Shown here piece by piece: positions 10,268 through 35,829 of a DNA stretch of 64,000 nucleotides (position 1 is the first letter of the stretch; each line of letters opens with the position of its first letter). The translations under genes and the position numbers were made by a program. This DNA comes from a virus: positions 57,821 to 121,820 of the IMG/VR virus record IMGVR_UViG_3300028837_000933, one strand, 5' to 3'. Below the pieces are notes generated by a model. The model had not been told where the DNA came from. It saw only the letters and a program-made list of their open reading frames with translations, and searched no databases.

Positions 10268-10276
10268 TGTACCTCC

Positions 10277-13095: not shown

Positions 13096-13128
13096 GTAGT
13101 AGGTTCGCTTTCCGGCTCCCTCAAGCGA

Positions 13129-19720: not shown

Positions 19721-19834
19721 ATGGAGTTGGTGGAAATGTTGGTCAATATGCAACCCGCGTTTCAGATTCTTCTGGGTGCGTTCGTGTTGTTGGTGGTTGC
19801 GGTTTGTCTGGAGTTGGTTGGTATGATGCGATAG
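19721..19834 (+). CDS. Array gene: 37-aa membrane peptide
   Basis: ATG after the repeat SD; hydrophobic. Confidence 0.65.
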   Translation: MELVEMLVNMQPAFQILLGAFVLLVVAVCLELVGMMR

Positions 19835-19995
19835 ACCAACCACCAAGACCCACAATAGAATAGAACCGAGAGACCCACAATCGGGACGGTTGGCAATTGC
19901 CAACGGTCCCTTTTGTGGTGAGAGACCCAACCGCGGAACCGTCCTATTGTGGGTCGGTTCGGTCGGGTTTCATCACAAAAAGGGAGAGTGATACA

Positions 19996-20379
19996 ATGTC
20001 AGATTATAGGTTGTATTGTGAGATTGACGAAACGGTTTTGAGGGAGTTGGTTGCCAGTATTGAAACCGTGTCAATCCGCGTGCGTGCGGAACCCAACCCT
20101 ATTCTACAATCGTTGGTTCCACTGGAGATTGTGGAATTGTCGCGGGAACGTGCGTGGTTGACAATCCATCGGATACCCGCAACCGGAACCGTCAACCGGT
20201 ATAGTCCAGCCGTCAACGTGGACGTTCCCGGTTGGGTTGACGTGGATCGGTTGGGTTTGTTGGATTGTCTGGACGGTTGGGTCGGTTGCGGGATTGTAAC
20301 CCTTTTTTCCACTCACGATGGAATAGGGTATGCTTCTGACGGTTGTTTTGACGTGGACGTTTCCGCGGAAACGTATTGA
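19996..20379 (+). CDS. Array gene: hypothetical protein
   Basis: Fills the space between two repeats exactly. Confidence 0.75.
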   Translation: MSDYRLYCEIDETVLRELVASIETVSIRVRAEPNPILQSLVPLEIVELSRERAWLTIHRIPATGTVNRYSPAVNVDVPGWVDVDRLGLLDCLDGWVGCGIVTLFSTHDGIGYASDGCFDVDVSAETY

Positions 20380-20531
20380 CCAACCACCAAGACCCACAAT
20401 AGAATAGAACCGAGAGACCCACAATCGGGACGGTTGGCCTAGGCCAACGGTCCCTTTTGTGGTGAGAGACCCAACCGCGGAACCGTCCTATTGTGGGTCG
20501 GTTCGGTCGGGTTTCATCACAAAAAGGGAGA

Positions 20532-20828
20532 GTGAGGTTCGACTACAATCCCGATGCTATTGGGACGTGTCAACGGGTTGGTATCTTGGTTCGACTATAC
20601 CACGATGGGAACCATTATCTTGTATATGACCGTTGGGACGTGATTGACGGTCAATCGCAACCCGTTTTTCTCGCGGGTTTTGGTGGTCCCGATTATACAA
20701 GAAACGGTCAATTGACCTATTCCAGTATTGACCGTGTGACGCGTTTTCTAATGCAAAACGCGGAAAAGGTTGAATTGTGGTTGACCCATCGGAACCATAT
20801 TGACGTCAAAACGCACGATCCACAATAG
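20532..20828 (+). CDS. Array gene: hypothetical protein (TYSSIDR motif)
   Basis: GTG after the repeat SD; stop lies in the next repeat. Confidence 0.65.
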   Translation: MRFDYNPDAIGTCQRVGILVRLYHDGNHYLVYDRWDVIDGQSQPVFLAGFGGPDYTRNGQLTYSSIDRVTRFLMQNAEKVELWLTHRNHIDVKTHDPQ

Positions 20829-20965
20829 AATAGAACCGAGAGACCCACAATCGGGACGGTTGGCCTAGGCCAACCGTCCCTTTTGTGGTGAGAGACCCAA
20901 CCGCGGAACCGTCCTATTGTGGGTCGGTTCGGTCGGGTTTCATCACAAAAAGGGAGAGTGATACA

Positions 20966-21403
20966 ATGTTGTTGGTTGACGTACAATTGACGGTTGTTTT
21001 CCGGAACCGTCCAGTGATGCGGGACGTGAACGGGAAACGTCAAAAAAACCGGGAACGGTCGACGGGTGATAGGCGTGGTATGATGCGGGATGAAACGTGG
21101 TTATGTCTCACGTGGAACCATGAAACCGGATTCAAGGTTGCGGATTGGACGTGGTATAGTGGTGGAAACAAACCCTATTGGAATAGGGAATATGGTTCCG
21201 GTGGTCAACGTGCGGTATATTCCTATAGGGACAATCGGTTGACCGCAAACCTAGATGACACGTGGATCACTGACTACCAACCACGAAAACCCATCACTGA
21301 CGCGTCAGTGAAACGGTTGTTTCGGGTTTGTCGAAAATACGGGATGATTGTCGCCTATCTTGGCGACGGTTGGTATACTGATTGTGGTGACGTTTCGATA
21401 TAA
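20966..21403 (+). CDS. Array gene: hypothetical protein (TDASVKRL motif)
   Basis: Between repeats. Confidence 0.75.
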   Translation: MLLVDVQLTVVFRNRPVMRDVNGKRQKNRERSTGDRRGMMRDETWLCLTWNHETGFKVADWTWYSGGNKPYWNREYGSGGQRAVYSYRDNRLTANLDDTWITDYQPRKPITDASVKRLFRVCRKYGMIVAYLGDGWYTDCGDVSI

Positions 21404-21559
21404 CCCGCATCACTGACAATAGAATAGAACCGAGAGACCCACAATCGGGACGGTTGGCCTAGGCCAACGGTCCCTTTTGTGGTGAGAGACCCAACCGCGG
21501 AGCCGTCCTATTGTGGGTCGGTTCGGTCGGGTTTCATCACAAAAAGGGAGAGTGATACA

Positions 21560-21934
21560 ATGTTGTTTTTCGTGGATCGTGATATACTCGCGGAAACGTT
21601 CTATGGTGACGAGTTGGACGATTGGGACCACGTACAGTGGAACGTCAAGTATTGGGGAGAGTTGGTTATAATTCCCTACGCAAGAATAGGTCAAAAACGT
21701 CCCGCGTTCGGTGCGTGGACTATCCCGGTTTCCGTTTTGGAGAGTGCGGAAAACGTCACAATCGATTGTATGGAGTTGGATACATTTTTGACCTATTCAA
21801 ACGTGGAAAAACCCGGTTCGGGTTGTATTGTCGCGTTCCGTTCCGATGGAGAGGGAACCGTTTCCGCGGGTATTGTACGTCAATCCCGATGGAAACCTAT
21901 ACAAGACCCGTTTTGGTTCGACATTTCACCATAG
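21560..21934 (+). CDS. Array gene: hypothetical protein
   Basis: Between repeats. Confidence 0.75.
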   Translation: MLFFVDRDILAETFYGDELDDWDHVQWNVKYWGELVIIPYARIGQKRPAFGAWTIPVSVLESAENVTIDCMELDTFLTYSNVEKPGSGCIVAFRSDGEGTVSAGIVRQSRWKPIQDPFWFDISP

Positions 21935-22096
21935 CACGCACCCACAATAGAATAGAACCGAGAGACCCACAATCGGGACGGTTGGCCTAGGCCAACGGTC
22001 CCTTTTGTGGTGAGAGACCCAACCGCGGAACCGTCCTATTGTGGGTCGGTTCGGTCGGGTTTCATCACAAAAAGGGAGAGTGAGACGGTCCAAAAA

Positions 22097-22242
22097 TGAA
22101 ACCGGTGCCGGATACGCTATTTTTCCATCGTTCCGCGATTGACGGTCCCAAAAGGAACGGGACCGAACCCGCAACCGTTGACGCGGAAAACCCGCATCGG
22201 TTGAAACCCGTGCCGGATACGCTATTTTTCCATCGTTCCGCG
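22097..22242 (+). repeat. 41-bp direct repeat pair inside one array unit
   Basis: TGAAACC(G/C)GTGCCGGATACGCTATTTTTCCATCGTTCCGCG at 22097 and 22202. Confidence 0.85.
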
Positions 22243-22400
22243 GGTTGACCAACCACCAAGACCCACAATAGAATAGAACCGAGAGACCCACAATCGGGAC
22301 GGTTGGCCTAGGCCAACGGTCCCTTTTGTGGTGAGAGACCCAACCCAACCAACCACGATCCACCAACCCAACCGCGGGAACCGTTGACGGGTTGACCAAC

Positions 22401-22548
22401 GGGACCCAACCGCACGCGGGACCCTTGACCCTTTTTCCGGTCGGGACCCAACCGCACGCGGGACCCTTGACCCTTTTTCCGGTCGGGAACCCAACCGCAC
22501 GCGGGAACCCTTGACCCTTTTTCCGGTCGGGACCCAACCGCACGCGGG
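22401..22548 (+). repeat. Tandem repeat, ~3.5 copies of 42-44 bp
   Basis: GGGACCCAACCGCACGCGGGACCCTTGACCCTTTTTCCGGTC. Confidence 0.9.
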
Positions 22549-23056
22549 GAATCCGCGTCAATTCGGTTGAACGCACCCACAACACAAAAACGGGTTACAC
22601 CGTGCAAAAAATCCCGCACATTTCCGGTCAATTGACCCTTTTTTGGTGAGACCAACCAACCAAAAACAACCGGGTTGACCGATTTTTGGGTCAATCGTTC
22701 CGGTTCCTAGGTCAACGGTCCCTTTTTTGGCCAACCTGGTCGGTTTCCAACCACAACCCTTGGAGCTGGTTCCAACCCATAGCGCGAGCGTGAGGGACTT
22801 ACACCTGGTGGAATCGGGCTGGCGTTTGGAGCCGCCAGCCAAAACGGCGCTAGATTCTACACCAACCGCGGAGCGCGTGAGCGCACATCTGGCGCATCTT
22901 TTCCCACGTTTGGAGTCGATAGCACGGGGCGGTCAGCTGGCCACAGCTGGCGGTCCCTTTTCGGGTGAGAGAGTCGGTAGTCGGCTCAGGCCGCGCTAGG
23001 CTGGAATCGGTCCAGCTTTTCTACGCCGACTCACAACCACAGAGAGGGAGAGTGTC

Positions 23057-23266
23057 ATGGCATGCGGAATCCCGCTATACGCGAGCGTGGCGCTGGAATA
23101 TCCCACGTGCCCGCCAACCACAGCCGGGGACGATGGCCGCGGTTTTCCAGCGGCCGGCGAACCTGGTGACTGGCGAATTGGCGACCCGCTGGACGATGAC
23201 GAGATCGGTATCCAGATGGGTGAGCCAATCGGGGTCGAGCACCTGGCTGGTATCGTGCTGGCGTAA
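23057..23266 (+). CDS. Array gene: small acidic hypothetical protein
   Basis: After the repeat SD. Confidence 0.65.
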   Translation: MACGIPLYASVALEYPTCPPTTAGDDGRGFPAAGEPGDWRIGDPLDDDEIGIQMGEPIGVEHLAGIVLA

Positions 23267-23763: not shown

Positions 23764-23887
23764 AACACAACAACCGAATACTCGCGAGAGACCCGAATTG
23801 GGACGGCGTGGCCTTATTCCACGTGGTCCCTTTTCGGGTGCCGGCGCCCCTGGTTCGGGCGTCGAGTACAGAGAGGGAGGGCATATC

Positions 23888-24118
23888 ATGGCAGCAGTAT
23901 CGTACATGGCGCGTTTTCACTCGGGGCGTTTGCTCCGGCTGGTCGGCAAGCTGGTCATGGTCCAGCTGGCATACGGTGTGGCCGAGGGCACGCTGTCGGT
24001 TGACGGCGAGCTGGCCAATTGCGTTTACACCGTGACCGGATCTGGCACGCATCTGGAGTTCCGCGTGGAGAAGGTGCGGGACGTGGAGTACAGCGAGCGC
24101 CTGGTGGTGCTCGTCTAG
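23888..24118 (+). CDS. Array gene: small beta-rich hypothetical protein
   Basis: Between repeats. Confidence 0.7.
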   Translation: MAAVSYMARFHSGRLLRLVGKLVMVQLAYGVAEGTLSVDGELANCVYTVTGSGTHLEFRVEKVRDVEYSERLVVLV

Positions 24119-24240
24119 CACAACAACCGAATACTCGCGAGAGACCCGAATTGGGACGGCGTGGCCTTATTCCACGTGGTCCCTTTTCGGGTGCCGGCGT
24201 CCGATCTGCTGACGCCGAGTACAGAGAGGGAGGGCATATC

Positions 24241-24624
24241 ATGGATAGCTTGGAATTGGGTGCCACGGCGGAGTTGCGCGTGCTGGTCAGGGGTTACAAG
24301 GGCCAGGACGGGCTCGATGTCCGGAAGTTCTACAATGGCAAGCCAACCAAAAAGGGTGCTTTTCTCTGCATCCCTGGACAGGCGGAGTTCGCCGTCAAGG
24401 CGCTTGGCCTGGTCCTGGCTGGCGAGAGCGCGGAAGAGGCGCTTCCCATCGATCGCGCCGCCAAGGGCACAACCAACCTGGTCGTGCGGCGCTTCGAGTT
24501 CAAGGGGATGGATGGTATCAGCATCCGGAAAGAGGGCGAGCGCTGGGGCAAGGGGATCTGGCTCAAGCTGGCTCAGGCCGAGTGGGCGTTCGGCGCGATG
24601 AAAGCCGCTCTGGCTGGCAAGTAG
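24241..24624 (+). CDS. Array gene: tandem PC4/YdbC-like ssDNA-binding protein
   Basis: Two copies of [YF]KG.DG[LI][DS][VI]RK...KG..L...QAE. Confidence 0.7.
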   Translation: MDSLELGATAELRVLVRGYKGQDGLDVRKFYNGKPTKKGAFLCIPGQAEFAVKALGLVLAGESAEEALPIDRAAKGTTNLVVRRFEFKGMDGISIRKEGERWGKGIWLKLAQAEWAFGAMKAALAGK

Positions 24625-24774
24625 CACGCATCACCACAACCGAATAGCGAGAGACCCGAATTGGGGCGAACCGGGATGTTCCGGTTGGTCCCTTTTCGGG
24701 TGAGAGAGCCAGTCACCCAACCGGGGTTGTCCCGGCTGGCCGCTGGGTCTCATCACAGAGAGGGAGGGATTGCA

Positions 24775-25446
24775 ATGGCGATGCACAAGACGGACGAGCT
24801 GTATCTGGACGCGCTGCCGCCGTTTCCACACAGCGACGAGGAGTTCTACAAGATGGAGACCACGCGGGACGTTCCGACATCGGCGCTGTGGTTCGAGCGC
24901 TGTGGTGACCATCTGGACGGTCGCAAGCTGGCAATCTGGCCACGCGAGCGGAGCGCGTGGAACGTGGTCCACAACGTCTTCTGGATGACGTTCTATCCGG
25001 ACGGCGCTGTGGTCGGCGGCTATGGCACGCGGATCGAGGGCGTGGATACGCCGTACAACTGGCGCAGTCACATCGAGCACCTGGCTCGCCGGAACGGCTA
25101 CAAGGTGACGGAGCCGGGACGGAACCGGACAATCCGGGTGGACTGGCATCCTGGTGACGTGGTGGCCGTGGTGTTCAAGTACATCGAGCGCCGCGAGACG
25201 CTGGACCAGTCGGAGTTGAACCGGCTGTACGACTACCGCCAGTTCTGGAACCCGCGGAAGGTGCGCAAGCTGTCGCTGTGGGTGGGCAGCGCGTGCCCTG
25301 GACAGCGCCAAGCTGGGCGCATAGCAACACAACAACCGAATACTCACGAGAGACCCGAATCGGGGCGGCTGGGCTTCATTCCCAGTGGCCCCTTTTCGGG
25401 TGCCGGCGCCCCTGGTTCGGGCGCCGAGTACAGAGAGGGAGAGTGA
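24775..25446 (+). CDS. Array gene: hypothetical protein that reads through the next repeat
   Basis: The TAG at 25322 before the repeat is out of frame; possible frameshift. Confidence 0.65.
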   Translation: MAMHKTDELYLDALPPFPHSDEEFYKMETTRDVPTSALWFERCGDHLDGRKLAIWPRERSAWNVVHNVFWMTFYPDGAVVGGYGTRIEGVDTPYNWRSHIEHLARRNGYKVTEPGRNRTIRVDWHPGDVVAVVFKYIERRETLDQSELNRLYDYRQFWNPRKVRKLSLWVGSACPGQRQAGRIATQQPNTHERPESGRLGFIPSGPFSGAGAPGSGAEYREGE

Positions 25447-25803
25447 ATGATGGACGTCGAGACTACGGTTTGTCGGCTCAAAGCAACGCTGGTATCCAGC
25501 GAGGGTGAGAATCTCAGCGTCAAGGCTCGCGGTGACGGAACGCTGTCGGTGACAGAGCTTGACACCAACAACGCGTTCACCACAACGCGGACGCTGGTCG
25601 GCGTGATCGTCTACGCGGCGGGCCGGAGCGTGATACACCGGGCTTCCGCGCTGGACACGCTCCGCGGACTGCGTGGCGACAAGGCGGTCAAGCTGGTGGA
25701 CGATGGCGAGGGCGCGTTGATTGGCTGGGAGTGCTCCGGCTGTCCCCATGGTGAGCACTGGCACGATGTGAGCGTGGTGCCAGCCGACATCACAACCGAA
25801 TAG
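25447..25803 (+). CDS. Array gene: hypothetical protein with a SWIM-like Cys/His cluster
   Basis: WECSGCPHGEHWH. Confidence 0.65.
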   Translation: MMDVETTVCRLKATLVSSEGENLSVKARGDGTLSVTELDTNNAFTTTRTLVGVIVYAAGRSVIHRASALDTLRGLRGDKAVKLVDDGEGALIGWECSGCPHGEHWHDVSVVPADITTE

Positions 25804-25905
25804 CGAGAGACCCGAAACGGGGCGGTTGGCCGATGGTGGCCGCGGTCCCTTTTCGGGTGCCGGCGCCTGGGGCTTAGGCGCTGGACAACAGAGAGGGAGG
25901 GTATC

Positions 25906-26286
25906 ATGCCGCACGGAATCAGTGGACTGTGTTTCGAGTTGGAAGTTGGCATATTCCGGCGAGCGTTGCTGGCCAACGTGTCGCGGAGCGTGTCGATCCT
26001 GGCTACGCACATCGGCAAGGCGCCAGTGATAATCCGGGACCTGGACTACAATCCGGGGATCGTGACGGAGCGCCGGATCGAGCGCAGCCAGATCGTGCTG
26101 TCGGTTGGTCGCATGGCTCTGGACAGCAGCAAGCTGCTGGGGTTCCTGGCCGGGATGGCCAACAGCGCACGCGTCCAGGTGGCCTACAACGCGGACAGCG
26201 AGCCGTGCATCACCGGGCTGTGCTGGGGCCAAAAGCGATGGCACACAATAGCCGACCTGGAGCCGTTCCAGTCGCCCGCCAGCTAG
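25906..26286 (+). CDS. Array gene: hypothetical protein
   Basis: Between repeats. Confidence 0.7.
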   Translation: MPHGISGLCFELEVGIFRRALLANVSRSVSILATHIGKAPVIIRDLDYNPGIVTERRIERSQIVLSVGRMALDSSKLLGFLAGMANSARVQVAYNADSEPCITGLCWGQKRWHTIADLEPFQSPAS

Positions 26287-26408
26287 ACTGGCGCACAACC
26301 GAATAGCGAGAGACCCGAATGGGGGCGAGCCGGGACGGTCCGGTTGGTCCCTTTTCGGGTGCCAGCGGCTTAGGGTTAGCCGTTGAGTACAGAGAGGGAG
26401 GGAGTAAC

Positions 26409-26732
26409 GTGAATCTCAGCATGGATACGGTATTGGACATCTGCAAGCGGTATGGCAAGCTGGGTTCGGCTGGTCAGGACGTGCTGGAGTCGGCGTTGAA
26501 CCGGGACCTGGGGTACGAGAACACAACGCCGTCCTTGGTGGAAGAGGCGCGGTCGTTCCTGGAGCTTCTGGCTGTCGAGTTCCCAGCTGAGGCTGGGGTG
26601 GCTTGTGAGGCTGAGTCCACAGCCGAGTACTGCGCCGAGTATCTGGCCAACGAACCGGAAGACGGCGAGGAGTGGGGCGAGTTGGAATGGACGGAATGGG
26701 GATTGGGCTGGAGTGGCGCGAGAGGCGGATAG
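26409..26732 (+). CDS. Array gene: acidic hypothetical protein
   Basis: GTG after the repeat SD. Confidence 0.7.
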   Translation: MNLSMDTVLDICKRYGKLGSAGQDVLESALNRDLGYENTTPSLVEEARSFLELLAVEFPAEAGVACEAESTAEYCAEYLANEPEDGEEWGELEWTEWGLGWSGARGG

Positions 26733-26877
26733 GACTGTTCATCCCTACCGTTCCCAACGGAATCACAACCGAATAGCGAGAGACCCGAAACGGGGCGGTT
26801 GGCCAACGGTGGCCAGCGGTCCCTTTTCGGGTGCCGGCGTCCGATCTGCTGACGCCGAGTACAGAGAGGGAGAGTGA

Positions 26878-27573
26878 ATGATGGAGAGCAAGAGGGAAGT
26901 AGTTCACCTGGCCCTGATGGAAACCACGTGGCCGGACGCGCCGCACATCGGGAGGTGGTCGTACACGCTTGGCGACTATGCCGGGGAGTGCAGCCAGTTG
27001 TACCCGACAGCTGACGCGTGCGATGCCGCCCTGGAAGAGCTGATGCCGAAAGCTCGCTGGGACAGGCGGGTTGTCGTCTGCTGCAAGGTCCACCACGAGA
27101 GTGCAGATGTGGACGTGGTGACCGACTACAGCATCGCGGACGGCGAGGTCATCGGCGTACACCGAGTGGAGCCAGGCGGCTGGCTGCGCAAGGTGCAGCA
27201 GCTGCTGGAGTCGGCGGTCAACGCCGACCTGGCCGAAACGGAAGTCCGTCGACAGATGCTGCAAAGCGCCCGGTGGCCACGGGCGGCGACCATCGCAAAG
27301 TTCTTGTACACCACAGACGGCGAGCAGGCGCTGTGGTTCGCCAACGCCGACCGCACACGGTTCGCGAGCGCCTCGCCGCACCACGCGCACAACGTGATGG
27401 GGCGGGCCGTCACCACGTGGCACGAGAACGGAGACGTTGACACGCACGTCTGGATGCCCAAACCGTCGCTACAGTTCTGGGTGACGGGGATGGTGCTGTT
27501 CGTCAAGGTCAACTACGATCTCGATCCGGTGAGCCGGGAAGAGGTCATGGCCTGCATCACAGCGCCGGAATAG
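26878..27573 (+). CDS. Array gene: hypothetical protein
   Basis: Between repeats. Confidence 0.75.
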   Translation: MMESKREVVHLALMETTWPDAPHIGRWSYTLGDYAGECSQLYPTADACDAALEELMPKARWDRRVVVCCKVHHESADVDVVTDYSIADGEVIGVHRVEPGGWLRKVQQLLESAVNADLAETEVRRQMLQSARWPRAATIAKFLYTTDGEQALWFANADRTRFASASPHHAHNVMGRAVTTWHENGDVDTHVWMPKPSLQFWVTGMVLFVKVNYDLDPVSREEVMACITAPE

Positions 27574-27695
27574 GCGCCAGTACAACCGAATACAGAGAGA
27601 CCCGAAACGGGACGGTTGGCCTATGGTGGTCGCGGTCCCTTTTCGGGTGCCAGCGCCAGCGGCTTAGGCGCTGAGTAACAGAGAGGGAGGGCAGT

Positions 27696-27995
27696 ATGAC
27701 GGAATACGAGAAGGCGGTCGAGCGCACGGAGCTTGCGATGTTCGAGCTGGGCGTGGACGCGGGGTTCAATGAGCACGCGTTCTGCATCGGGCGCGATCAG
27801 GGCGACACCGAGATCAAGCTGTGGAGCGTCTACACTCCGCTGGCTGGCGGCGGCAAGCGGCGCATCACAACGGTCATGGGGCGCACGGAGCTTGAGGCTC
27901 AGGACAGAGCGTGGGACACGTTGAACCGGCCGGGGCGCGTGGCAATCGCGCTCGAGTGGCGCGACATGGGTTGTCGCGTAGAACCGAAAGAGTAA
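27696..27995 (+). CDS. Array gene: hypothetical protein
   Basis: Between repeats. Confidence 0.75.
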   Translation: MTEYEKAVERTELAMFELGVDAGFNEHAFCIGRDQGDTEIKLWSVYTPLAGGGKRRITTVMGRTELEAQDRAWDTLNRPGRVAIALEWRDMGCRVEPKE

Positions 27996-28097
27996 CACGA
28001 GAGATCCGAATCGGGACGGTGGCCAATGGCCGCGGTCCCTTTTCGGGTGCCGGCGCCTGGGGCTTAGGCGCTGGACAACAGAGAGGGAGGGTGTATC

Positions 28098-28328
28098 ATG
28101 GCCGGAAACGGCAAGCCAAGTCTCCGCTATAATCGGGGGCGCCGCGTGCTTCTGGACGCACGCTCAGCGCACTTTCAGCGGACGGGGCACAAGCGCATCC
28201 ACGTGGGCTTGAACTACATCGAGTGCGAGGTCTGCAAGGCACACGCGCACCTGGATCGGTTCGCCCGGCAGCTGCTACAGCATGGCCGAGTGGGGCCGCT
28301 GTACCAGATTCAGCCAGCCGAGTTCTAG
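28098..28328 (+). CDS. Array gene: small basic protein with CxxC
   Basis: After the repeat SD; H...CEVC. Confidence 0.7.
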   Translation: MAGNGKPSLRYNRGRRVLLDARSAHFQRTGHKRIHVGLNYIECEVCKAHAHLDRFARQLLQHGRVGPLYQIQPAEF

Positions 28329-28464
28329 CATCGGCGGCGGGACAGTAGCACAGAGAGACCCGAAACGGGGCGGTTGGGGTGCCGCAGAGTCATGGTCCCA
28401 ACGGTCCCTTTTCGGGTGCCGGCGCCTGGGGCTTAGGCGCTGGACAACAGAGAGGGAGGGTATC

Positions 28465-28767
28465 ATGCGGAGAGTGTTCAAGGTCGCGGAGAAGGACGGC
28501 GACGAGATCAACGAGAAGGCGCTCCGGCTGGCCGCCAAGGCGCTCCGGCGTGAGCGTGACGGCGGTGCTCTGCTACGTGTCGGGCGGGACTACGAGCCGA
28601 TGGAAGTGGAGCGGATCAACGTTGGCACGGAGTGCCGCGGGCTGATGGGGCGCACGCTGTTCCTGGAAGTCGTCGACGGGCGCAAGCGCGTACACAAGGT
28701 AGCCGCCGAGATGGTTCGGGGCGTCTACGTCTACGGCGGGACACGGACGGTCGAGACAGTCGAGTAG
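28465..28767 (+). CDS. Array gene: hypothetical protein
   Basis: Between repeats. Confidence 0.75.
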   Translation: MRRVFKVAEKDGDEINEKALRLAAKALRRERDGGALLRVGRDYEPMEVERINVGTECRGLMGRTLFLEVVDGRKRVHKVAAEMVRGVYVYGGTRTVETVE

Positions 28768-28853
28768 AGAGATCCGAAACGGGACGGTGGCCAGCGGCTG
28801 CGGTCCCTTTTCGGGTGCCGGCGCAACACGCGCCGAGTACAGAGAGGGAGGGA

Positions 28854-29267
28854 ATGATGGAGACGCTACACTTTGCTATCGTGAGAGTCTCGCACAAGAC
28901 GGACGGCGCTGTGGAGTGGTGTGCTCTGGTCATGGTGGAGCACACGAGCGCATGGGACCGTCCAGCGCGGTTCGAGTGGCAGGGGATCTATCCCACGCTG
29001 GCCAGCCTGGAGCGTGGACTCGCCAAGGTGTACCCTGGCTCAGAGTTGGGCAAGGGCCGTGGCCTAACGTTCATGGTACACGTGACGCGCCACGACACCG
29101 ACACCACCGACCGCATCCAGCGCTATCTGCTACCGCCGCCCGATGGCCGCGAGGTGGAAGTGCCGAGTCATGGCAACGATGCCGAGATCACGATCCAGTC
29201 CTGGCTGCTGGACGAGGTCGTCCAGCGGAAGGCGCTGGCCTTCGATGCGGCGCGGAACGCGGAGTAG
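28854..29267 (+). CDS. Array gene: hypothetical protein
   Basis: Between repeats. Confidence 0.75.
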   Translation: MMETLHFAIVRVSHKTDGAVEWCALVMVEHTSAWDRPARFEWQGIYPTLASLERGLAKVYPGSELGKGRGLTFMVHVTRHDTDTTDRIQRYLLPPPDGREVEVPSHGNDAEITIQSWLLDEVVQRKALAFDAARNAE

Positions 29268-29367
29268 AGAGAGACCCGAAACGGGACGGTTGCCACCGGC
29301 AGCGGTCCCTTTTCGGGTGCCAGCGCCAGCGGCTTAGGCGCTGAGTGACAGAGAGGGAGGGAGTATC

Positions 29368-29589
29368 ATGGCTGAGGAGTTGAAACGGGCGGAGCGGGTG
29401 TTGCGGACGAAGCTGGCTCGAATGTACAGAGTCTACGGTGAGGCTGTCATCCGGAAGGTCGCGGCCGTGGAGTTCTTGGGCGTGGTGGACGGGTTCTACC
29501 AGTTCCAAGTGGAGTTCGAGCGAGAGTTGCTTCCCCAGTTCTACGAGGTGCGCTTGTACGCCAAGAGCGCCAGGGTGTACAGCGCCTAG
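29368..29589 (+). CDS. Array gene: small hypothetical protein
   Basis: Between repeats. Confidence 0.75.
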   Translation: MAEELKRAERVLRTKLARMYRVYGEAVIRKVAAVEFLGVVDGFYQFQVEFERELLPQFYEVRLYAKSARVYSA

Positions 29590-29681
29590 AGAGACCCGAG
29601 ATGGGACGGTGGCCAATGGCCGCGGTCCCTTTTCGGGTGCCGGCGCACTGCGCCGAGTACATCACAGAGAGGGAGGGTATC

Positions 29682-30449
29682 ATGGGTAGACGCGAGATGC
29701 TCAAGAGGGACGCGGGCGTCCGGTTCCTGTATCTGGTCTCCGAGAAGATTCTGGAGACCTACGAGATCAAGCACTGGCCAAGCGTCATGCGGAACCGCAA
29801 GACCAGTCTACACCGACGCCGGAACGGGACGAGCCAGCTGCTGTTCAGCTGGTCCAACGTCCAGCGGCAGTGGTACTGCGGAGCCAGGGAGTACAAGACG
29901 GTGGCCAGGGCAATGCGCGAGGTCAACGAGCGCTCAGAGCCTGGCTGGCACGCACTCCGGCAGGTCCTGCTCCACGAGTGCGCCCACGCGCTTCAGTATG
30001 AGGTGCCGAACGGGCGGACGCGGGGCAGCATCCACAACGAAGTGTTCATGGCCGAGTACCGTGCTCTGCTGGAACGCTACGATCTGGATCGGTGCCTGAC
30101 GATGGCTGGTCTCACGCTGGACAGCAAGCCGCCGTGGGAAGAGCCGAAAGTGGAAGAGCCAACCACCGCACAGACATCGTTCATCGCACCCAAACCGCAG
30201 ACAGAACTGCTCATCGGACGGATCAAGATCAAGGAAAAGGCGCAGTTCTGGTCAGCGAGACAGCAAAAGGACGGCAAGATCAACCTGTCGTTCGGCCGCA
30301 AGTACTACGCTAAGATGACGTCGACGGAGCGCCAGCTGCTGCTCGAGTACTGCATGGCCACGATGCGGAAGTCGCTATTCCGCGTGCCGATCCCGCCCGA
30401 CCTCCGCGGCCAGTACCTGGCGCTGAGGCTGCGAGTGGGCGGCTGGTAG
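29682..30449 (+). CDS. Array gene: SprT-like zinc metalloprotease domain protein
   Basis: VLLHECAHALQ...H...F (HExxH plus third His). Confidence 0.7.
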   Translation: MGRREMLKRDAGVRFLYLVSEKILETYEIKHWPSVMRNRKTSLHRRRNGTSQLLFSWSNVQRQWYCGAREYKTVARAMREVNERSEPGWHALRQVLLHECAHALQYEVPNGRTRGSIHNEVFMAEYRALLERYDLDRCLTMAGLTLDSKPPWEEPKVEEPTTAQTSFIAPKPQTELLIGRIKIKEKAQFWSARQQKDGKINLSFGRKYYAKMTSTERQLLLEYCMATMRKSLFRVPIPPDLRGQYLALRLRVGGW

Positions 30450-30549
30450 AGAGACCCGAGATGGGACGATGGCCCGGCCTGGGCTGTGGTCCCTTTTCGG
30501 GTGCCAGCGCCAGCGGCTTAGGCGCTGAGTAACAGAGAGGGAGGGCAAT

Positions 30550-30858
30550 ATGGAAACGGCGGACTTGGGGTATGGAACCGTGCTGGCGCTCAAGCCAACG
30601 GGACGGCACGCGGACGTGTTCCAGCAAGTCATCTTGATCAGCGATGGCAGCGCTGTGTTCCCGCGAGGCGAGGAGACGCGGTTCTTCGGTCTTTTCGTAG
30701 ACGACTACGAGCAGCCAACGAAGTATGGGTTGGCCAACGTGTACGTCCCGGAAGAGGCGGAAGAGCGTGTCGGTCAAGTCGAGGAAACGCAGGTGCCGAT
30801 CATGGTCGTTGATGCCGGCTTTGGCTGGCCTGGACGACTCACACCGAAGGAGGGCTGA
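30550..30858 (+). CDS. Array gene: hypothetical protein
   Basis: After the repeat SD. Confidence 0.7.
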   Translation: METADLGYGTVLALKPTGRHADVFQQVILISDGSAVFPRGEETRFFGLFVDDYEQPTKYGLANVYVPEEAEERVGQVEETQVPIMVVDAGFGWPGRLTPKEG

Positions 30859-30859
30859 G

Positions 30860-31021
30860 ATGGCATTCGATCCGAGATACAGACCGCGCCCCGAGAACTG
30901 GGGCAAGCTGCACACCGCGCTCAAAGCTGGCGATGAGGCCAAGGCTGAGCGCATCCTCCGCACAATCGAGGCCGAAACCGAGCTGATGATACGCGAGGCA
31001 GAGGCGTACAAGGGCGACTAG
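30860..31021 (+). CDS. Second gene in a two-gene array unit
   Basis: Own RBS AAGGAGG; stop abuts the next repeat. Confidence 0.65.
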   Translation: MAFDPRYRPRPENWGKLHTALKAGDEAKAERILRTIEAETELMIREAEAYKGD

Positions 31022-31110
31022 AGAGATCCGAAACGGGACGGTGGCCAGTGGCCGCGGTCCCTTTTCGGGTGCCGGCGCAACACGCGCCGAGTACAGAGAG
31101 GGAGGGAGAT

Positions 31111-31521
31111 ATGGTTTTCCATGTGAAGCAGTACGTCTTGATGCGGCTGCTGTCGAATTGCCGCGTCAGGGCGCCGTGGATGGACACGATCCGTCTGCAC
31201 GCCATGCACCCGCAAGACCTACATCTGGTGAGGCTGGATCTGTTCGTGGAGGACGCGGGCGGCAACGTGGATGGTATCGGCATGATGCACACTATCGAAG
31301 AGTGCTACGACACCGTACACGTTGACAGTCCTGGCGCTGTCCTGGTCAGCTTGCACGAGCTGGGCAACGTGGTTCGTCACCACGCACCCGACCAGTACGT
31401 GACACTGGCGCTGTACGAGAAGGGCGAAGAGCGCGTCATGGTGAGCATCGGCAATGGCCATCCGAAGTATGTGGCCCGCATCGATGCGAGCACGCTCCGC
31501 ACCTTGCCAGATGCGGAGTAG
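31111..31521 (+). CDS. Array gene: beta-clamp domain I-like single-domain protein
   Basis: VHVDSPGAVLVSLHELGNVVR...YVTL resembles the DnaN N-terminal domain. Confidence 0.55.
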   Translation: MVFHVKQYVLMRLLSNCRVRAPWMDTIRLHAMHPQDLHLVRLDLFVEDAGGNVDGIGMMHTIEECYDTVHVDSPGAVLVSLHELGNVVRHHAPDQYVTLALYEKGEERVMVSIGNGHPKYVARIDASTLRTLPDAE

Positions 31522-31624
31522 TAGGAGAGACCCGAAACGGGACGGTTGCCACCGGCAGCGGTCCCTTTTCGGGTGCCAGCGCCAGCGGCTTAGGCGCTGA
31601 GTAACAGAGAGGGAGGGAACAGTC

Positions 31625-32269
31625 ATGGAGATGAAGTGGAGTCACGAGATGTCCAAGCTGACGCTGGTCATCGAGACGGAACAGGGCGCCATCACAGATC
31701 CCGATGAAGTGCTACGCGCCGCCGAGGTCATCTTGATGACGGCGGTCAGCCATCTGGAGCCGGACACGGCGCCCGAGATCGTGCAGCGCGTGATCGATCA
31801 CGTCACCACCACCAACGATGCCATCGAGAGCGGCGACTGGAGTGGCGAGGCTGGACCAGACGAGTGCGACACGTGCTACAATCTGCTGGACAGCCACGAT
31901 GGGTGTGTGTTCTGCGACCAGGACGAACCCGATCCGCCGCCACGCGAGTACCGCAAGGTCAAGCAAGGCGACACGGTGCGGTTCGCCCACAAGCTGGGCT
32001 ACGAGGTGACGGCTGTGGTGGTCGGCAAGCGGTTCTACGCACACGCAGCGGACGCGTCCAGCATCACCGTGTACAGCGCTGACCACGGCACGCTGTACGG
32101 TCTCTCGCTGGGCGCTTACGAGATTCTCGCACAGCCGGACGATGCGACCCGCGAGAAGAAGTTCGTGGAGGCGGACGAGAACTACAAGGCGCATCTGAAA
32201 CAGTACGGGATCTGGGCGGCCAGATTCGAGCAGGAGCCCGACTACCGATTCTTCGAGTGGGAGGGCTAG
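31625..32269 (+). CDS. Array gene: Zn-ribbon-containing hypothetical protein
   Basis: CDTC...CVFC. Confidence 0.7.
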   Translation: MEMKWSHEMSKLTLVIETEQGAITDPDEVLRAAEVILMTAVSHLEPDTAPEIVQRVIDHVTTTNDAIESGDWSGEAGPDECDTCYNLLDSHDGCVFCDQDEPDPPPREYRKVKQGDTVRFAHKLGYEVTAVVVGKRFYAHAADASSITVYSADHGTLYGLSLGAYEILAQPDDATREKKFVEADENYKAHLKQYGIWAARFEQEPDYRFFEWEG

Positions 32270-32368
32270 ACGAGAGACCCGAGATGGGACGGTTGCCACC
32301 GGCAGCGGTCCCTTTTCGGGTGCCAGCGTCCGATCTGCTGACGCTGAGTAACAGAGAGGGAGGGTATC

Positions 32369-32914
32369 ATGGGTAAGAGGTATCGAACGATCAACCTGGG
32401 CTGGGGCGCGGGTGAGCGCCGCTACGTCCGCCATGCGCTGGAGTCGACCGAGACCGGAATGCTCCGGCACCAGTTCAAGGTGTCAGACGAGGAGTGGGCC
32501 GCCAAGGTGAGCCCGACACCCGCCAGCGTGCGCCGCTTGCTTCGCGTGCTGGTCAAGAACGGCTGGAGCATCTGCGCCGAGGGAATGCTCAAGCCGGAAG
32601 TCGCCAAGGGCCGCGTGTGCGGCAACAACGCGCCCCGCTACGTCCACGTTGACTACAACGACTACGATGGCCGCGAGCAGCTGGTGCCGCCGCGCTGCTA
32701 CAGCCGGACACCACCGCCCTGCGTCCACGAGGGCGTCCACGTTGACCAGCCCCGCGCCGTGACGGAGTTCGAGAACGTCACCCAGGCATCCGTGGGCCGC
32801 ATCCTGGAGCTTCTGGACGAGGACGATGTGACAGTCTGGGCGGCTGTGGAGCCGTCCGTCACTCGCGTCCAGTTCCTTGGCTACGTGCCAACGGGCGAGG
32901 AAGAGGACGCTTAG
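32369..32914 (+). CDS. Array gene: hypothetical protein (two T.ASV.R motifs)
   Basis: Between repeats. Confidence 0.75.
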   Translation: MGKRYRTINLGWGAGERRYVRHALESTETGMLRHQFKVSDEEWAAKVSPTPASVRRLLRVLVKNGWSICAEGMLKPEVAKGRVCGNNAPRYVHVDYNDYDGREQLVPPRCYSRTPPPCVHEGVHVDQPRAVTEFENVTQASVGRILELLDEDDVTVWAAVEPSVTRVQFLGYVPTGEEEDA

Positions 32915-33001
32915 AGAGACCCGAAACGGGACGGTCAGCCTAGCTGGCGGTCCCTTTTCGGGTGCCGGCGCAACGCGCCGAGTACAGAGAGGGAGGGAGA
33001 T

Positions 33002-33379
33002 ATGCTGTTCACAGTGAGACAGAACTACCTGTTCCGTATGCTGGCGGATGCCCGCCGTACCGTGCCGTTCCTGGAGCGGGTCACGCTCAGCGCGGAGTAC
33101 GTTGGCAACGGACGGGCAAAGCTGACGATGACGTTTCTCGATGACGAGATGAGCTTGTCGCACAAGTTCTCGACTGAATGCACCGTGCGCATCGAAGTGG
33201 AGGGTGCGTGCAGCGCGGACGTATCGGAGCTTGCCGACTTTGTCGGCCAGTGCAAGCCGACTGAGCACATCGATGTCAGCTTGCTAGGCAGCGATGCCGG
33301 CGACCGCCAGGTGTTGGTGTCCTCTGGCGGCTACGGGAACGCGATCAAAGGCGAGCGCGTCATGCTGATGCGTGACTGA
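33002..33379 (+). CDS. Array gene: beta-clamp domain I-like single-domain protein
   Basis: MLFTVRQ..L...L...P.LERVTLSAE...LTMTFLDDEMSL...IEVEGACS...LADFV. Confidence 0.6.
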   Translation: MLFTVRQNYLFRMLADARRTVPFLERVTLSAEYVGNGRAKLTMTFLDDEMSLSHKFSTECTVRIEVEGACSADVSELADFVGQCKPTEHIDVSLLGSDAGDRQVLVSSGGYGNAIKGERVMLMRD

Positions 33380-33476
33380 GAGATCCGAAAACGGGACGGT
33401 TGGCCTAGGCCAGCGGTCCCTTTTCGGGTGCCGGCGCCCCTGGTTCACGCGCCGAGTACAGAGAGGGAGGTGTGTG

Positions 33477-33815
33477 ATGATGAAAGTACGTGTTCGCCAG
33501 AAAGCGCTGGTCGCTGCTCTTGCAGACGCGGCCAGTTCGAGCCACGTCCAGCTGGAGGCCACGCGTCCGCATCAGCTGGCCGTGACGGGGCCGGAGGGTG
33601 ACGTGAGGTACATCGGGCGATGCTTCTACGAGTGTTTCACGGAGCGTGTCGGTTCCGTCACCGTCTCCGCCAACAAGTTGCTGGCCGTGCTCGATGAGTG
33701 GATGCGGTGGGACTACGTGACTCTGCTCGCATCGCCAGTGCTGGGCGGTTGGATGCTCGTGAGCAACGAGCAGACCAACGAGGCCAAGGCCATCAAGCTG
33801 GCCAGCTACAGCTAG
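33477..33815 (+). CDS. Array gene: beta-clamp domain I-like single-domain protein
   Basis: MKVRVRQKALVAAL...VQLEA...GSVTVSANKLLAVL...YVTL. Confidence 0.6.
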   Translation: MMKVRVRQKALVAALADAASSSHVQLEATRPHQLAVTGPEGDVRYIGRCFYECFTERVGSVTVSANKLLAVLDEWMRWDYVTLLASPVLGGWMLVSNEQTNEAKAIKLASYS

Positions 33816-33924
33816 GAGAGATCCGGAATCGGGCGTGTCAGTTCAACGTTAGACTGATAGGCCCGTTTTCGGGTGCCAGCGCCCGCTACCACGGGCGTTG
33901 AGTATCACAGAGAGGGAGGGTACG

Positions 33925-34128
33925 ATGGAAGGGCATGAGCATGACGACACGGACCTGTGCGCCTGTGGCGCGGATCTGCTCGAGGCCATCACCAATGGCT
34001 ACGCGCACTACGCCTACACCGAGGGCACGTTCACGATCGAATGCTACGAGTGCGGCCTGGAGATCGAGGTCGAGGCCGAGGCGCACGTCACGTTCAAGGT
34101 GACGGTTCCGAAGGAGAGTGCGACATGA
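33925..34128 (+). CDS. Array gene: small Zn-ribbon protein
   Basis: CAC...CYEC. Confidence 0.7.
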   Translation: MEGHEHDDTDLCACGADLLEAITNGYAHYAYTEGTFTIECYECGLEIEVEAEAHVTFKVTVPKESAT

Positions 34129-34487
34129 GAGAGTTTCTCAAGAGAGAGGTGAGGGGTGAGCGCCCCGCCGAGGCGCCCGATGGCTGGATCGTCTACAACG
34201 CGCCGCGTCCCATCTGGGGCCACACGAAGTGGCAAGGCGACTTTGTGACTGGCGTGTTCTACGCGGCTGTAGATCCCGAGATGGACGATGCGGACGAGAT
34301 GGTCGCCCACAACCAGCTACAGCACGCGGCCGAGCTGACGTTCATCAGCGAAGAGGAATGGCGCCGGCGCGTCGAAGAGTACGGTCGAAAGATGTCGGCG
34401 GAGTACGAGATCAACCTGGACGACTTCGAGTGGGCCGACATAGAGGCCAGCTACGCCAACTGGCTCCGGCAGGAGCACGAAACGTGA
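34125..34487 (+). CDS. Second gene in a two-gene array unit, acidic
   Basis: ATGA overlap, RBS AAGGAG. Confidence 0.7.
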   Translation: MREFLKREVRGERPAEAPDGWIVYNAPRPIWGHTKWQGDFVTGVFYAAVDPEMDDADEMVAHNQLQHAAELTFISEEEWRRRVEEYGRKMSAEYEINLDDFEWADIEASYANWLRQEHET

Positions 34488-34564: not shown

Positions 34565-34592
34565 TTGCCGTTCTGCACGTTTTGTGTATAAT
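34565..34592 (+). promoter_or_regulatory. Sigma70-type promoter embedded in the last array repeat
   Basis: TTGCCG-16 nt-TATAAT inside the loop of hairpin 2. Confidence 0.6.
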
Positions 34593-35428: not shown

Positions 35429-35443
35429 GGCGAGGGCGCGAGA

Positions 35444-35475
35444 AGGCCAGGGCATCCGCCCTGGCCTTTTGTTTT
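35444..35475 (+). terminator. Intrinsic terminator closing the array transcript
   Basis: AGGCCAGGGC-ATCC-GCCCTGGCCT then TTTGTTTT. Confidence 0.8.
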
Positions 35476-35829
35476 GCCCGCGCTCGCTCTGGCCGGTCTT
35501 TACGGTTTCCGTCGCGCGTCTGCGCGTTTTTTTGCCCGAGAGGGGGAGGGCGAGCGCCGCCGCCGAGGCCGCACACCTGACGCGCAAGCGTGGTGTTTGG
35601 AGTCGCTCAGAGCTATTGCGGAGGCATGATATTGCCGCGCCCATACACCTAGGCGAATGTGCTGGTGTTTGGAGTCGACCGAGTGTTATGCTGTCACGCT
35701 TACCGCGAGCGCCGTTTGTAGGCGTGCCTGTTACCGATGTCTGTCACAAAACGCGATCGCCGTAAGAGCCTATGCCGTTCCCAAAGGAGTGGCACTGAAC
35801 TCGCCCCGAGATGTGCCCTGACATAGTGA

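Follow-up and report, generated by a model that had tools for sequence, protein, structure and literature searches.

A 15-kb region of a tailed phage carries 30 copies of a structured RNA leader, one before each gene or coupled gene pair in an array of small orphan genes, and these copies are mosaics of one another. The DNA belongs to the linear IMG/VR virus record IMGVR_UViG_3300028837_000933 (121,820 nt; CheckV completeness ~87%); the window, as we call the whole stretch analysed here, comprises its bases 57821-121820 (64,000 nt), and coordinates below are window positions. This DNA was found in four runs of one marine-sediment study, all of them DNA and none RNA, and the contigs of these runs were used for comparison. 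The reassortment of hairpins among copies is a confirmed observation, whereas the interpretation in the original prediction is supported in part. We regard the leader as a regulatory cassette that is repeated through an orphan-gene array of a phage and whose copies evolve by recombining with one another: a known concept with an RNA fold of its own. The mosaic itself is probably due to gene conversion among copies of the leader, that is, to ordinary recombination between repeats with no dedicated cassette machinery.

Co-oriented leaders in an array of small orphan genes

The leaders occur in two forms, type A and type B. A covariance model (CM) built from 21 type B units recovered 30 copies in the window, all on the + strand and with E <= 3e-5, and nothing else of note: 22 full type B units, one degenerate first type B unit, six full type A units and one partial type A unit. 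Together they span 19.6-34.6 kb. Searching the window for the conserved core of the units at up to three mismatches gave 34 matches against 0.62 expected; 30 of these are on the + strand, and the four on the minus strand are the complementary 5' strand of the first hairpin described below. One regular-expression match to the core, at 22633, was discarded, having neither a flanking element nor a CM match. Across the whole record the exact core GGTCCCTTTTNNGGTG occurs 27 times, 27 forward and 0 reverse, always between window positions 19630 and 34527. Rfam, at gathering score, returned no match in the 64-kb window.

The genes of the array are about 30 small early genes, co-oriented and mostly orphans. 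Ten array proteins were tested: eight were without a Pfam match, the exceptions being a PC4-like domain and a SprT-like match below the cut-off, and none of the ten matched PHROG. Among 28 predicted proteins (one of them in the wrong frame) a single paralogous pair was found, encoded at 31111-31521 and 33002-33379 and sharing 25% identity; the leaders of this pair (r31056 and r32949 in the list below) are alike in second hairpin and spacer and unlike in first-hairpin top. Two cassettes, 30550-31021 and 33925-34487, each hold two translationally coupled open reading frames (ORFs) behind one leader, joined by TGAgATG at 30856-30863 and by an overlapping ATGA at 34125-34128, respectively. The gap between the type A and type B arrays contains a 42-nt unit in 3.5 tandem copies with 97% matches (22400-22548), each copy with CTTGACCC and a T-run.

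The leader has a two-hairpin fold selected on the sense strand

Folding was carried out on 27 units, the remaining three being without anchor motifs, and gave a single fold in 27/27: hairpin 1, hairpin 2, an unpaired Shine-Dalgarno (SD) block and the start codon, within an element of 80-150 nt. Hairpin 1 is built in three tiers, a lower stem (ACCCGAA/TTCGGGT), a middle stem (GGGAC/GTCCC) and a variable top, with stems of 7-8, 5 and 6-8 bp and two small conserved internal loops; the tops have 6-8 bp or more and loops of 3-9 nt. Hairpin 2 abuts hairpin 1 and has a variable top on a base that reads CCGGCG..CGCCGAG or, covarying, CCAGCG..CGCTGAG. On its 3' side follow the single-stranded GAGUA(A)CAGAGAGGGAGGG, 5-9 nt and the start codon; the SD block is purine-rich (ACAGAGAGGGAGGG) and is unpaired in 26 of the 27 folded units. 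The 5' partner strand of hairpin 1 (GAGAYCCGAR..GGGRC) lies 25-45 nt upstream of the core GGTCCCTTTTCGGGTG. The invariant core, around which the original prediction had seen left and right halves reassort, is the 3' strand of hairpin 1 and not a crossover site; the 'left half' of that prediction corresponds to the top and 5' strand of hairpin 1, and the 'right half' to hairpin 2.

Covariation shows that this structure is under selection. RNAalifold gave 22 consensus pairs, nine of them with double compensatory changes, and 98.3% of cells were paired as compared with 87.4% in column shuffles (0/500 reached the observed value) and at most 58.6% in slid controls. The foot pair of hairpin 2 is G-C in nine units, A-U in nine and G-U in three; the core variant GGCCCC of unit r25387 is compensated by GGGGC on the 5' strand (pair 17-52, GC:2); and the type A and type B cores, which differ by 2 nt, have 5' strands that differ to match (CCCACAA/TTGTGG versus CCCGAA/TTCGGG). 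A G stands opposite a G between middle stem and top in 28 of 29 units, the exception reading G in run X1. The + strand folds more stably than the - strand in 27/27 units, with 86 G.U pairs as against 28, and every change in the 5' strand is a transition that preserves a wobble pair. These data show that the leader structure is selected on the sense strand, and the asymmetry of strands and wobble pairs largely explains the 'invariance' of the G/U-rich 3' strand.

Other readings of the core were tried and given up. The idea that it is a promoter, used by a phage RNA polymerase or by the sigma-like protein at 45753-46415, was dropped, since the 5' partner of the core covaries, including U.G pairs that are sensible only in RNA, and an N4-type hairpin promoter was dropped for tops that are too variable. 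Pairing of UCCCUUUU, within the core, with the SD block as a switch is possible on paper and is absent from all minimum-free-energy folds. The put-like antiterminators of phage HK022 likewise consist of two adjacent stem-loops, and this reading, though possible, was set aside, 30 copies being hard to explain that way.

Hairpin tops are reassorted among the copies

The mosaic was already apparent from motifs that the original prediction had reported as shared, and these were recovered with the same combinations, each with an exact-match chance expectation of 0.00 in 100 shuffles. The left loop common to the repeats before 23888 and 24241, GCGTGGCCTTATTCCACGT, occurs twice, at 23806 and 24159, with differing second hairpins. 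The right hairpin described as following three left halves, GCGTCCGATCTGCTGACGC, lies at 24197, 26837 and 32326 behind three first-hairpin tops. A further left loop, TTGCCACCGGCAG, is found at 29290, 31546 and 32293, followed in the first two by GCCAGCGGCTTAGGC (four copies, at 27655, 29325, 30509 and 31581) and in the third by the GCGTCCGATC... hairpin. Lastly, the type A loop said to reappear in a type B context, TTGGCCTAGGCCA, is present in five type A units and one type B unit (33400).

We split the 22 full type B units at conserved anchors into hand-defined module families, namely the 5'-strand type (F), the first-hairpin top (A1-A11), the second hairpin (R0-R8) and the spacer from SD to start codon (S), and obtained 11 first-hairpin tops and nine second hairpins. 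The 30 units are as follows.

19578-19720, + strand: type A unit 1; core GGTCCCTTTTGTGGTG at 19630; long first-hairpin top; CM 43.6 bits
19870-19995, + strand: type A unit 2; core at 19905; CM 52.5 bits
20414-20539, + strand: type A unit 3; core at 20449
20840-20965, + strand: type A unit 4; core at 20875; first core base C in the record, G in the run X1 contig
21434-21559, + strand: type A unit 5; core at 21469
21962-22087, + strand: type A unit 6; core at 21997
22288-22331, + strand: type A unit 7; core at 22318; hairpin 1 alone, with no second hairpin or SD; CM 29.3 bits, model positions 5-50
22911-23059, + strand: first type B unit, degenerate; core at 22952; without the 5' strand of the lower stem; long second hairpin; 36.7 bits
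23296-23418, + strand: type B r23332; top A1; long, type-A-like second hairpin R0
23788-23890, + strand: type B r23825; top A2, second hairpin R1, spacer S1
24141-24243, + strand: type B r24178; A2, R2 (interior TCCGATCTGCTGA), S1
24651-24777, + strand: type B r24687; A1, long second hairpin R0
25350-25452, + strand: type B r25387; A2', R1, S2; compensated core variant
25807-25908, + strand: type B r25844; A3, R3, S3
26310-26411, + strand: type B r26346; A1, R5
26780-26883, + strand: type B r26818; A3, R2, S2; in both main incompatibility quartets
27597-27698, + strand: type B r27634; A3, R4
28001-28100, + strand: type B r28034; A4, R3; 5'-strand variant GAGATCC, giving a U.G pair
28355-28467, + strand: type B r28403; A6 (long top), R3, S3
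28769-28859, + strand: type B r28802; A4, R6; upstream stop codon 1 nt before the element
29271-29370, + strand: type B r29304; A5, R4
29591-29684, + strand: type B r29624; A4, R6', S3; 5'-strand variant GAGAT
30451-30552, + strand: type B r30488; A7, R4
31023-31113, + strand: type B r31056; A4, R6, S5; precedes ORF 31111-31521
31527-31627, + strand: type B r31560; A5, R4
32274-32371, + strand: type B r32307; A5; R2 interior inside a hairpin base and tail of R4 type; spacer S3
32916-33004, + strand: type B r32949; A8, R6'', S5; precedes the paralogue 33002-33379
33380-33479, + strand: type B r33415; type-A-like top A9; R1'
33818-33927, + strand: type B r33860; divergent; core GGCCCGTTTTCGGGTG compensated on the 5' strand; CM 79.6 bits
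34488-34644, + strand: last type B unit, r34527; second hairpin expanded by a promoter-like insert

Incompatibility between adjacent modules was scored as cycles in the bipartite graphs of their states, a multi-state analogue of the four-gamete test. Cycles were found between 5' strand and top (F x A; GAAAC/GAGAT with A4/A5), between top and second hairpin (A x R; A3/A5 with R2/R4, in r26818, r27634, r32307 and r29304/r31560) and between second hairpin and spacer (R x S; R1/R2 with S1/S2, in r23825, r24178, r25387 and r26818), of which the R x S quartet is the most robust, its states being identical or 1 nt apart. Since incompatibilities occur at three module intervals, the exchange points are not confined to the core. 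The exchange between copies that the original prediction deduced is clear, while its placement at or near the core, which is one strand of a hairpin stem, is not borne out. GARD and RDP breakpoint tests have little power with 22 short copies.

The scale of the exchanges is seen by comparing units in pairs. Identical hairpin tops of 13-29 nt are found in different contexts, and 35 of the 231 unit pairs show a differing block with at least 20 nt of exact identity on each side. Between r23825 and r24178, 59 identical nt are followed by a differing 16-nt block in hairpin 2 and a further 28 identical nt; r25844 and r28403 share 22 nt, differ in the first-hairpin top and share the next 66 nt; and r31560 and r32307 share 43 nt, differ over 13 nt and share 23, with further differences in the spacer and in 2 nt of the 5' strand. 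Replacement of single tops between identical flanks points to short-patch conversion or template switching and is not expected from single crossovers that swap halves. Units with the same first-hairpin top also lie near one another (mean rank distance 3.0 versus 7.65 when permuted, p = 0.0002), and other modules are clustered by position as well (p = 0.001-0.046).

Homologous exchange via conserved blocks of 16-22 nt is the simplest mechanism for such a pattern. Copies would pair through the middle stem, the core together with CCGGCG, and GAGTACAGAGAGGGAG, and each non-homologous hairpin top would then be converted as a block, by heteroduplex repair or template switching. Tops would in this way reassort independently and mostly among nearby copies, with no site-specific recombinase and with the genes not necessarily moving, and the mosaic would be a by-product of the multi-copy state of the element. 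The single-top patches, the identical tops before unrelated genes and the positional clustering favour such conversion within one genome.

Alternative accounts of the mosaic

Chimeric units could in principle be produced by a short-read assembler that collapses or mis-threads repeats, and the record is a metagenome assembly. Among type B units, exact sharing through the core extends to 81 nt at most, below typical read length, so that single short reads can span it, and the variable tops lie within ~60 nt of one another and of unique coding sequence. Independent bridging was provided by Logan k=31 unitigs from the best-matching runs: the unitigs at 26332-26847, 26856-27661 and 29618-30517 each span the top and the core and reach 14 nt into hairpin 2 (in r26818, r27634 and r30488, respectively), and that at 32299-33002 contains r32949 entire, together with r32307 from a point 8 nt short of the end of the first-hairpin top. 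The type B mosaic is probably not an assembly artefact, and misassembly as the source of the mosaic altogether is scarcely credible. For type A, exact shared blocks of up to 145 nt make the unit order less certain, and the record and the Logan contigs disagree locally. Two type A 'joints' in the contigs have sides of 30-32 nt (one runs 19724->20536 with 12 letters between) and look like unitig ends placed on the wrong near-identical copy plus a real small indel, not like cassette deletions. The ORF after type A unit 3 (20520-20540) is without a start codon in the record, and extra letters in the X1 and X2 contigs (depths 13 and 8.3) supply an ATG. Within the type B region, ORF 24775-25446 crosses unit r25387 in the record; the X2 contig has 29 extra letters after 25281 (depth 5.6 of 5.6), which shift the frame such that the ORF would stop at TAG 25322-25324, before the leader, like other cassettes. 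A deletion, or an error of assembly, is possible in the record at 25281.

A different history is suggested by the promoter-early stem-loops (PeSLs) of T4-type phages (Arbiol et al., 2010, PMC2839356; Comeau et al., 2014, PMC4122927), which are reported to recombine with one another, giving chimeric units and mini-circles, and are likened by the authors to integrons (PMC2839356). By analogy, homologous crossovers between leaders would excise, insert or swap whole orphan-gene cassettes, within the genome, between co-infecting relatives or via mini-circles, and leave chimeric units behind. We consider this possible but doubtful. The order of stop codon, (promoter), stem-loop, SD and start in an orphan-dense region agrees with the PeSL architecture as described (PMC2839356), and the scarcity of Pfam and PHROG matches, the chimeric units themselves and the paralogous pair with its common second hairpin and spacer and different first-hairpin tops all fit. 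The type A block and its genes (18000-22400) have a GC content of 0.50-0.51 as compared with 0.60-0.64 in the remaining window; this block was either acquired from a source of different composition or is a pre-early segment with a special function, and import of a cassette block from a lower-GC relative carrying a sister element would fit too. By contrast, one paralogous pair among 28 proteins means that recent duplications are not visible, and in the cleanest mosaics a single top is swapped in otherwise identical units, for which one crossover per event is insufficient. Identical tops before unrelated genes and variants clustered by position are likewise at odds with cassette exchange. The contigs of the four runs contain no joint between non-adjacent type B units, a weak argument as contigs drop rare forms, and the searches for relatives found none that shows an indel bounded by units. 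Of the cassette idea in the original prediction, then, the homologous-recombination form is compatible with the chimeric units and at odds with the single-top swaps, and no sign of cassettes being excised or inserted was seen, the contigs of four runs, which drop rare variants, having no joint in the type B region and the record no match to the enzymes described next.

Alternatively, the leaders might be read as attC-like folded sites, recombined at the core by a dedicated recombinase as in integrons. Some 30 co-oriented, unrelated small ORFs stand between imperfect palindromes with variable centres and conserved ends, and the structure is strand-specific, as it is in attC sites. Yet the 121.8-kb record, ~87% complete as it is, yielded no recombinase of the tyrosine or serine class and no HUH transposase: Phage_integrase (PF00589), Resolvase and Y1_Tnp (PF01797, RAYT) each gave 0 matches, with positive controls in 14/14, 12/14 and 6/14 genomes, and Pfam and PHROG scans of 40 further ORFs yielded no nuclease, recombinase or RNA-binding family. 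Moreover, exchange occurred in three or more intervals instead of at one site; the units carry an SD and lie 5' of each gene on the sense strand, leader-like and unlike the 3' attC; and the aligned units show no boxes of the attC consensus type, GTTRRRY/RYYYAAC, at their ends. The lack of a recombinase, the several exchange intervals and the 5' position fused to an SD make the integron-like reading most unlikely. Selection without exchange, in which a limited repertoire of tops is kept or arises repeatedly, each top being the address of a specific RNA-binding factor, would account for the small number of families (11 tops and nine second hairpins in 22 units), and the strong conservation of the stems, with the G-G mismatch in 28/29 units, suggests that a protein recognises the element. 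Independent origin of identical 13-29-nt sequences is, however, implausible at a chance expectation of 0.00, the wide variation of loops (3-9 nt) and stems (6-8 bp and more) argues against specific recognition of tops, and placing the variants would still require copying between units. We judge this account very improbable.

Gene conversion among the leaders has its own difficulties, and the following points weigh against it. A PHI-like test on the alignment, which speaks for exchange, gave an observed value below all 5000 permutations, a result inflated by paired hairpin columns, which neighbour each other and covary. The A x R quartet needs three similar, non-identical A3 tops to be merged; when they are split, a chain is left and not a cycle. 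Assortment of A and R is incomplete, with 17 distinct combinations in 22 units versus 20.3 when permuted (mutual-information p = 0.006), and the positional clustering could equally reflect blocks inherited together. The record and the contigs of the best-matching runs differ by two small indels. Finally, Ribonuclease_3 (PF00636), RecT, ERF and RecA had no match in the record, itself ~87% complete, seven families having been searched in all, so that the enzymes for both proposed steps, exchange and the RNA processing considered below, would come from the host or be ones that were not recognised.

Predicted function in a long early transcript

Sites resembling sigma-70 promoters (TTGACC/TAGACC/TTCACC, 17-18 nt, TAGAAT) were found at four of the seven type A units. 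The promoter-like and terminator-like features of the array are listed below.

~19540-19556: promoter-like, TATAAT-type, just upstream of type A unit 1
19832-19861: promoter-like TAGACC-18-TAGAAT, ending ~8 nt before type A unit 2
20376-20405: promoter-like TTGACC-18-TAGAAT, type A unit 3
21925-21953: promoter-like TTCACC-17-TAGAAT, type A unit 6
22245-22274: promoter-like site, type A unit 7
34565-34592: promoter-like TTGCCG-16-TATAAT, inside hairpin 2 of r34527
35443-35476, + strand: terminator-like hairpin with an 11-bp stem and a T-rich tail (TTGTTTTG), directly after the last array gene
35513-35536: second terminator-like hairpin, from the consensus scan

Promoters at the type A sites would start transcripts at about the beginning of the element, and hairpin 1 would therefore be 5'-terminal. 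Among type B units 22 of 23 are without a promoter, the sole one lying inside hairpin 2 of the last unit. A homologous sequence leading into type B units, CACAACCGAATAGCGA, is kept in the first ~nine without a -10 match (a decayed -10-like CCGAAT) and is gone from r28403 onward, and in 11 of the 12 last units the upstream stop codon lies 0-5 nt before the element. Canonical long-U terminators occur solely after the array, with tails of 6-7 T, and the two hairpins listed there are the predicted end of the transcription unit. From this layout we infer one early transcription unit of ~16 kb, punctuated by the elements.

Within such a transcript the leader would act as an RNA that punctuates a long polycistronic message. 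Hairpin 1 might serve as a processing structure, a 3'-protecting structure for the upstream cistron, or both, and hairpin 2 with its exposed strong SD would give the downstream cistron a translation start that is insulated and stabilising; hairpin 1 may in addition attenuate transcription weakly. We give processing, stabilisation and insulated translation start about an even chance of being the function of the RNA, and favour it over a set of attenuating terminators.

That rival, in which hairpin 1 is an attenuator or terminator as in PeSLs and limits read-through from unit to unit, is compatible with any model of exchange; we hold it to be a possible reading, and the less likely of the two. 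A GC-rich hairpin is followed by TTTT, a consensus terminator scan returned 44 sites versus 19.3 +/- 5.0 in shuffles, mostly hairpin 1 tops, and type A units combine a promoter-like site with hairpin 1 and the tail TTTTGTGGTG, which is borderline for a terminator U-tract. PeSL stem-loops terminated efficiently in reporters, according to the part of the report that treats them (PMC2839356). On the other side, the full type B stem is followed by four U and then CGGG (tail TTTTCGGG), short of the U-tract of ~7-9 nt that joins a GC-rich hairpin in an intrinsic terminator and of the 6-7 T that close the array. The U-tract is itself paired within the conserved lower stem, and this stem and the conserved internal mismatch are foreign to plain terminators. 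Some 22 terminators in series would, moreover, starve the distal genes, as type B units have no promoters of their own. What counts against a processing and translation role is that transcription, processing and termination are all deduced here, that many hairpin 1 tops scored as terminator-like and that type A hairpin 1 runs into TTTTGTGGTG.

A bolder proposal, which we regard as unlikely, is that the two-hairpin unit represents a class of RNA not described before, for 'cistron punctuation'. A dedicated endoribonuclease or RNA-binding protein, from phage or host, would read the invariant lower and middle stems with the G-G mismatch and cut or mark the 16-kb early transcript before every gene, and the conserved blocks would double as portable recombination linkers, making an integrase-free array of orphan-gene cassettes that is shuffled among related phages.

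Comparison with known systems

By analogy, the PeSL of T4-type phages is the closest concept. PeSLs too are repeated intergenic cassettes between the stop codon of an orphan gene and the next SD and start, with a stable GC-rich stem-loop; they are concentrated in a block of early genes that are small and non-essential, copies that recombine are expected to become chimeric, and no dedicated recombinase is known (PMC2839356). The units here likewise place a stable intergenic stem-loop among orphan genes, after the stop codon of one gene and before the SD and start of the next, and the mosaic units are the scars that PeSL-type recombination would be expected to leave. A sigma-70-like early promoter in each unit, as in PeSLs, is seen here in part: four of the seven type A units have one and ordinary type B units have none. 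The two systems differ further in that there is no sequence homology and the phages are unrelated (large terminase, TerL, of GpA type; identity to the phages of an isolate-phage collection at most 27.6%); the present element has two hairpins, a conserved multi-tier stem and strong covariation; its U-tract is short; and exchange is visible as patchwise replacement of tops.

The start-associated sequences of Cluster K mycobacteriophages and their extended form (SAS/ESAS; Pope et al., 2011, PMC3203893) are a second analogue. In the sections of that paper that describe them, many start codons have an SD-containing conserved motif a few bases (3-8 bp) before them, about half of the SAS copies are preceded by an imperfect inverted repeat whose spacer varies, all copies have a single orientation, and the function is given as unknown, with a role in translation suspected (PMC3203893). 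The layout of SD motif and upstream inverted repeat with variable spacer is found here by analogy, in another phage group and with other sequences. ESAS, as described there, has one 17-bp inverted repeat, whereas the present element has two hairpins, the first three-tiered, and forms a contiguous series through the 15-kb array with one copy to each gene; those sections say nothing of reassortment among parts of ESAS. The present case shows that regulatory cassettes of the PeSL or ESAS kind are not peculiar to T4-like phages or mycobacteriophages.

The long early transcript of T7 has about ten RNase III sites between its cistrons, each an irregular hairpin of roughly two helical turns that contains small internal loops, and cutting leaves a protective 3' hairpin on the upstream message. 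Hairpin 1 is such an irregular inter-cistron hairpin of ~20 bp, and its cleavage would be the analogous step. The T7 sites are not near-identical repeats, in contrast to the ~30 near-identical copies here, and no PF00636 protein was found in the phage record. With integrons the array shares co-oriented, unrelated small genes, structured imperfect palindromes, variable centres and strand-specific folding; what it does not show is an IntI-type tyrosine recombinase with the array (PF00589, 0 matches, record ~87% complete) or a 3' attC with R''/L''...L'/R' boxes and a single crossover site, the units being 5', SD-fused and exchanged at three places. REP/BIME elements combine hairpin modules and linker motifs differently at intergenic sites and resemble the leaders as mosaics of modules recombined across such sites. 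Here, however, 30/30 copies have one orientation and are one per gene, fused to an SD and confined to one 15-kb region of a phage, neither dispersed nor in inverted pairs, and no RAYT (PF01797, 0 matches in the record) was found as in REPIN-RAYT systems.

The host-takeover and anti-defence functions of phages reside in arrays of orphan early genes, whose expression and renewal are poorly understood outside T4-type phages. The present array is an unusually clean case, with ~30 copies, strong covariation, a strand preference, a readable history of patchwise exchange and no cultured relative in the lineage, and it defines an RNA element of 80-100 nt that can be tested as a processing, stabilising or insulating module. 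It also carries a caution: an invariant core between reassorting halves can be the hairpin stem of a multi-copy RNA element and not a recombination site.

Genome context and relatives of the phage

The source of the window is a tailed phage. Genes of its other functions are listed here; ParB-like proteins and an NrdG-like activase are also encoded in the window.

5659-8433, - strand: prohead protease fused to a capsid-like region
10277-12112, - strand: GpA-type TerL
45753-46415: sigma-70 region 4 domain protein (PF04545, 29 bits)
48963-50318, + strand: DnaB
57055-58329, + strand: beta-clamp

The sigma-70 region 4 protein, as judged from its domain, suggests that the phage may redirect host RNA polymerase to later genes. 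The best TerL relatives, in a collection of 5.8 billion proteins, have 54% identity, and the closest relatives are uncultured. The few that are named come from metagenome-assembled genomes (MAGs) of Chloroflexota/Anaerolineae and one of Planctomycetaceae, an origin that offers only a hint at a possible host.

We searched for the leader outside the record. The exact core 18-mer had 0 matches in the viral contigs collection and nine single matches in metagenome contigs. The core 16-mer with NN had at least 116 single, chance-like matches in viral contigs, and none of 131 loci inspected had two or more copies. A gapped core-plus-SD pattern had 0 matches in viral contigs and six single matches in genome contigs versus ~8 expected by chance, and TerL peptide patterns had 0 matches in viral contigs. 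A TerL profile collected 80 viral loci at 43-53% identity; the CM found nothing convincing on them, with a best E of 0.076 (loci L162 and L163).

Upstream of the array, a stretch of ~3 kb (16400-19550) with no long + strand ORF separates the divergent structural and early gene blocks. Its A-over-T skew is strong (AT skew 0.42 and 0.28), its GC content is lower, and it is dense in short tandem repeats, with 6.4 copies of period 73 at 18209-18673 and AAACCGTGTG repeated 12 times at 18650-18770. Its possible roles include those of an origin, of a region for packaging or of a regulatory region.

Repeats of other kinds were seen in two of the TerL relatives. Locus L207 (51% identity) has five copies of a different conserved leader at 9890-13829 on the - strand, with GC-rich hairpins, ...CTACACA..CACA and CCCAGGAGGTATGA before start codons; it is analogous and non-homologous to the leader described here, and repeated leaders may therefore recur in this phage lineage. 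Locus L199 carries eight copies of GAAGTGACTAAAGT, four of which form a tandem cluster right after the terminase gene (11684-11800).

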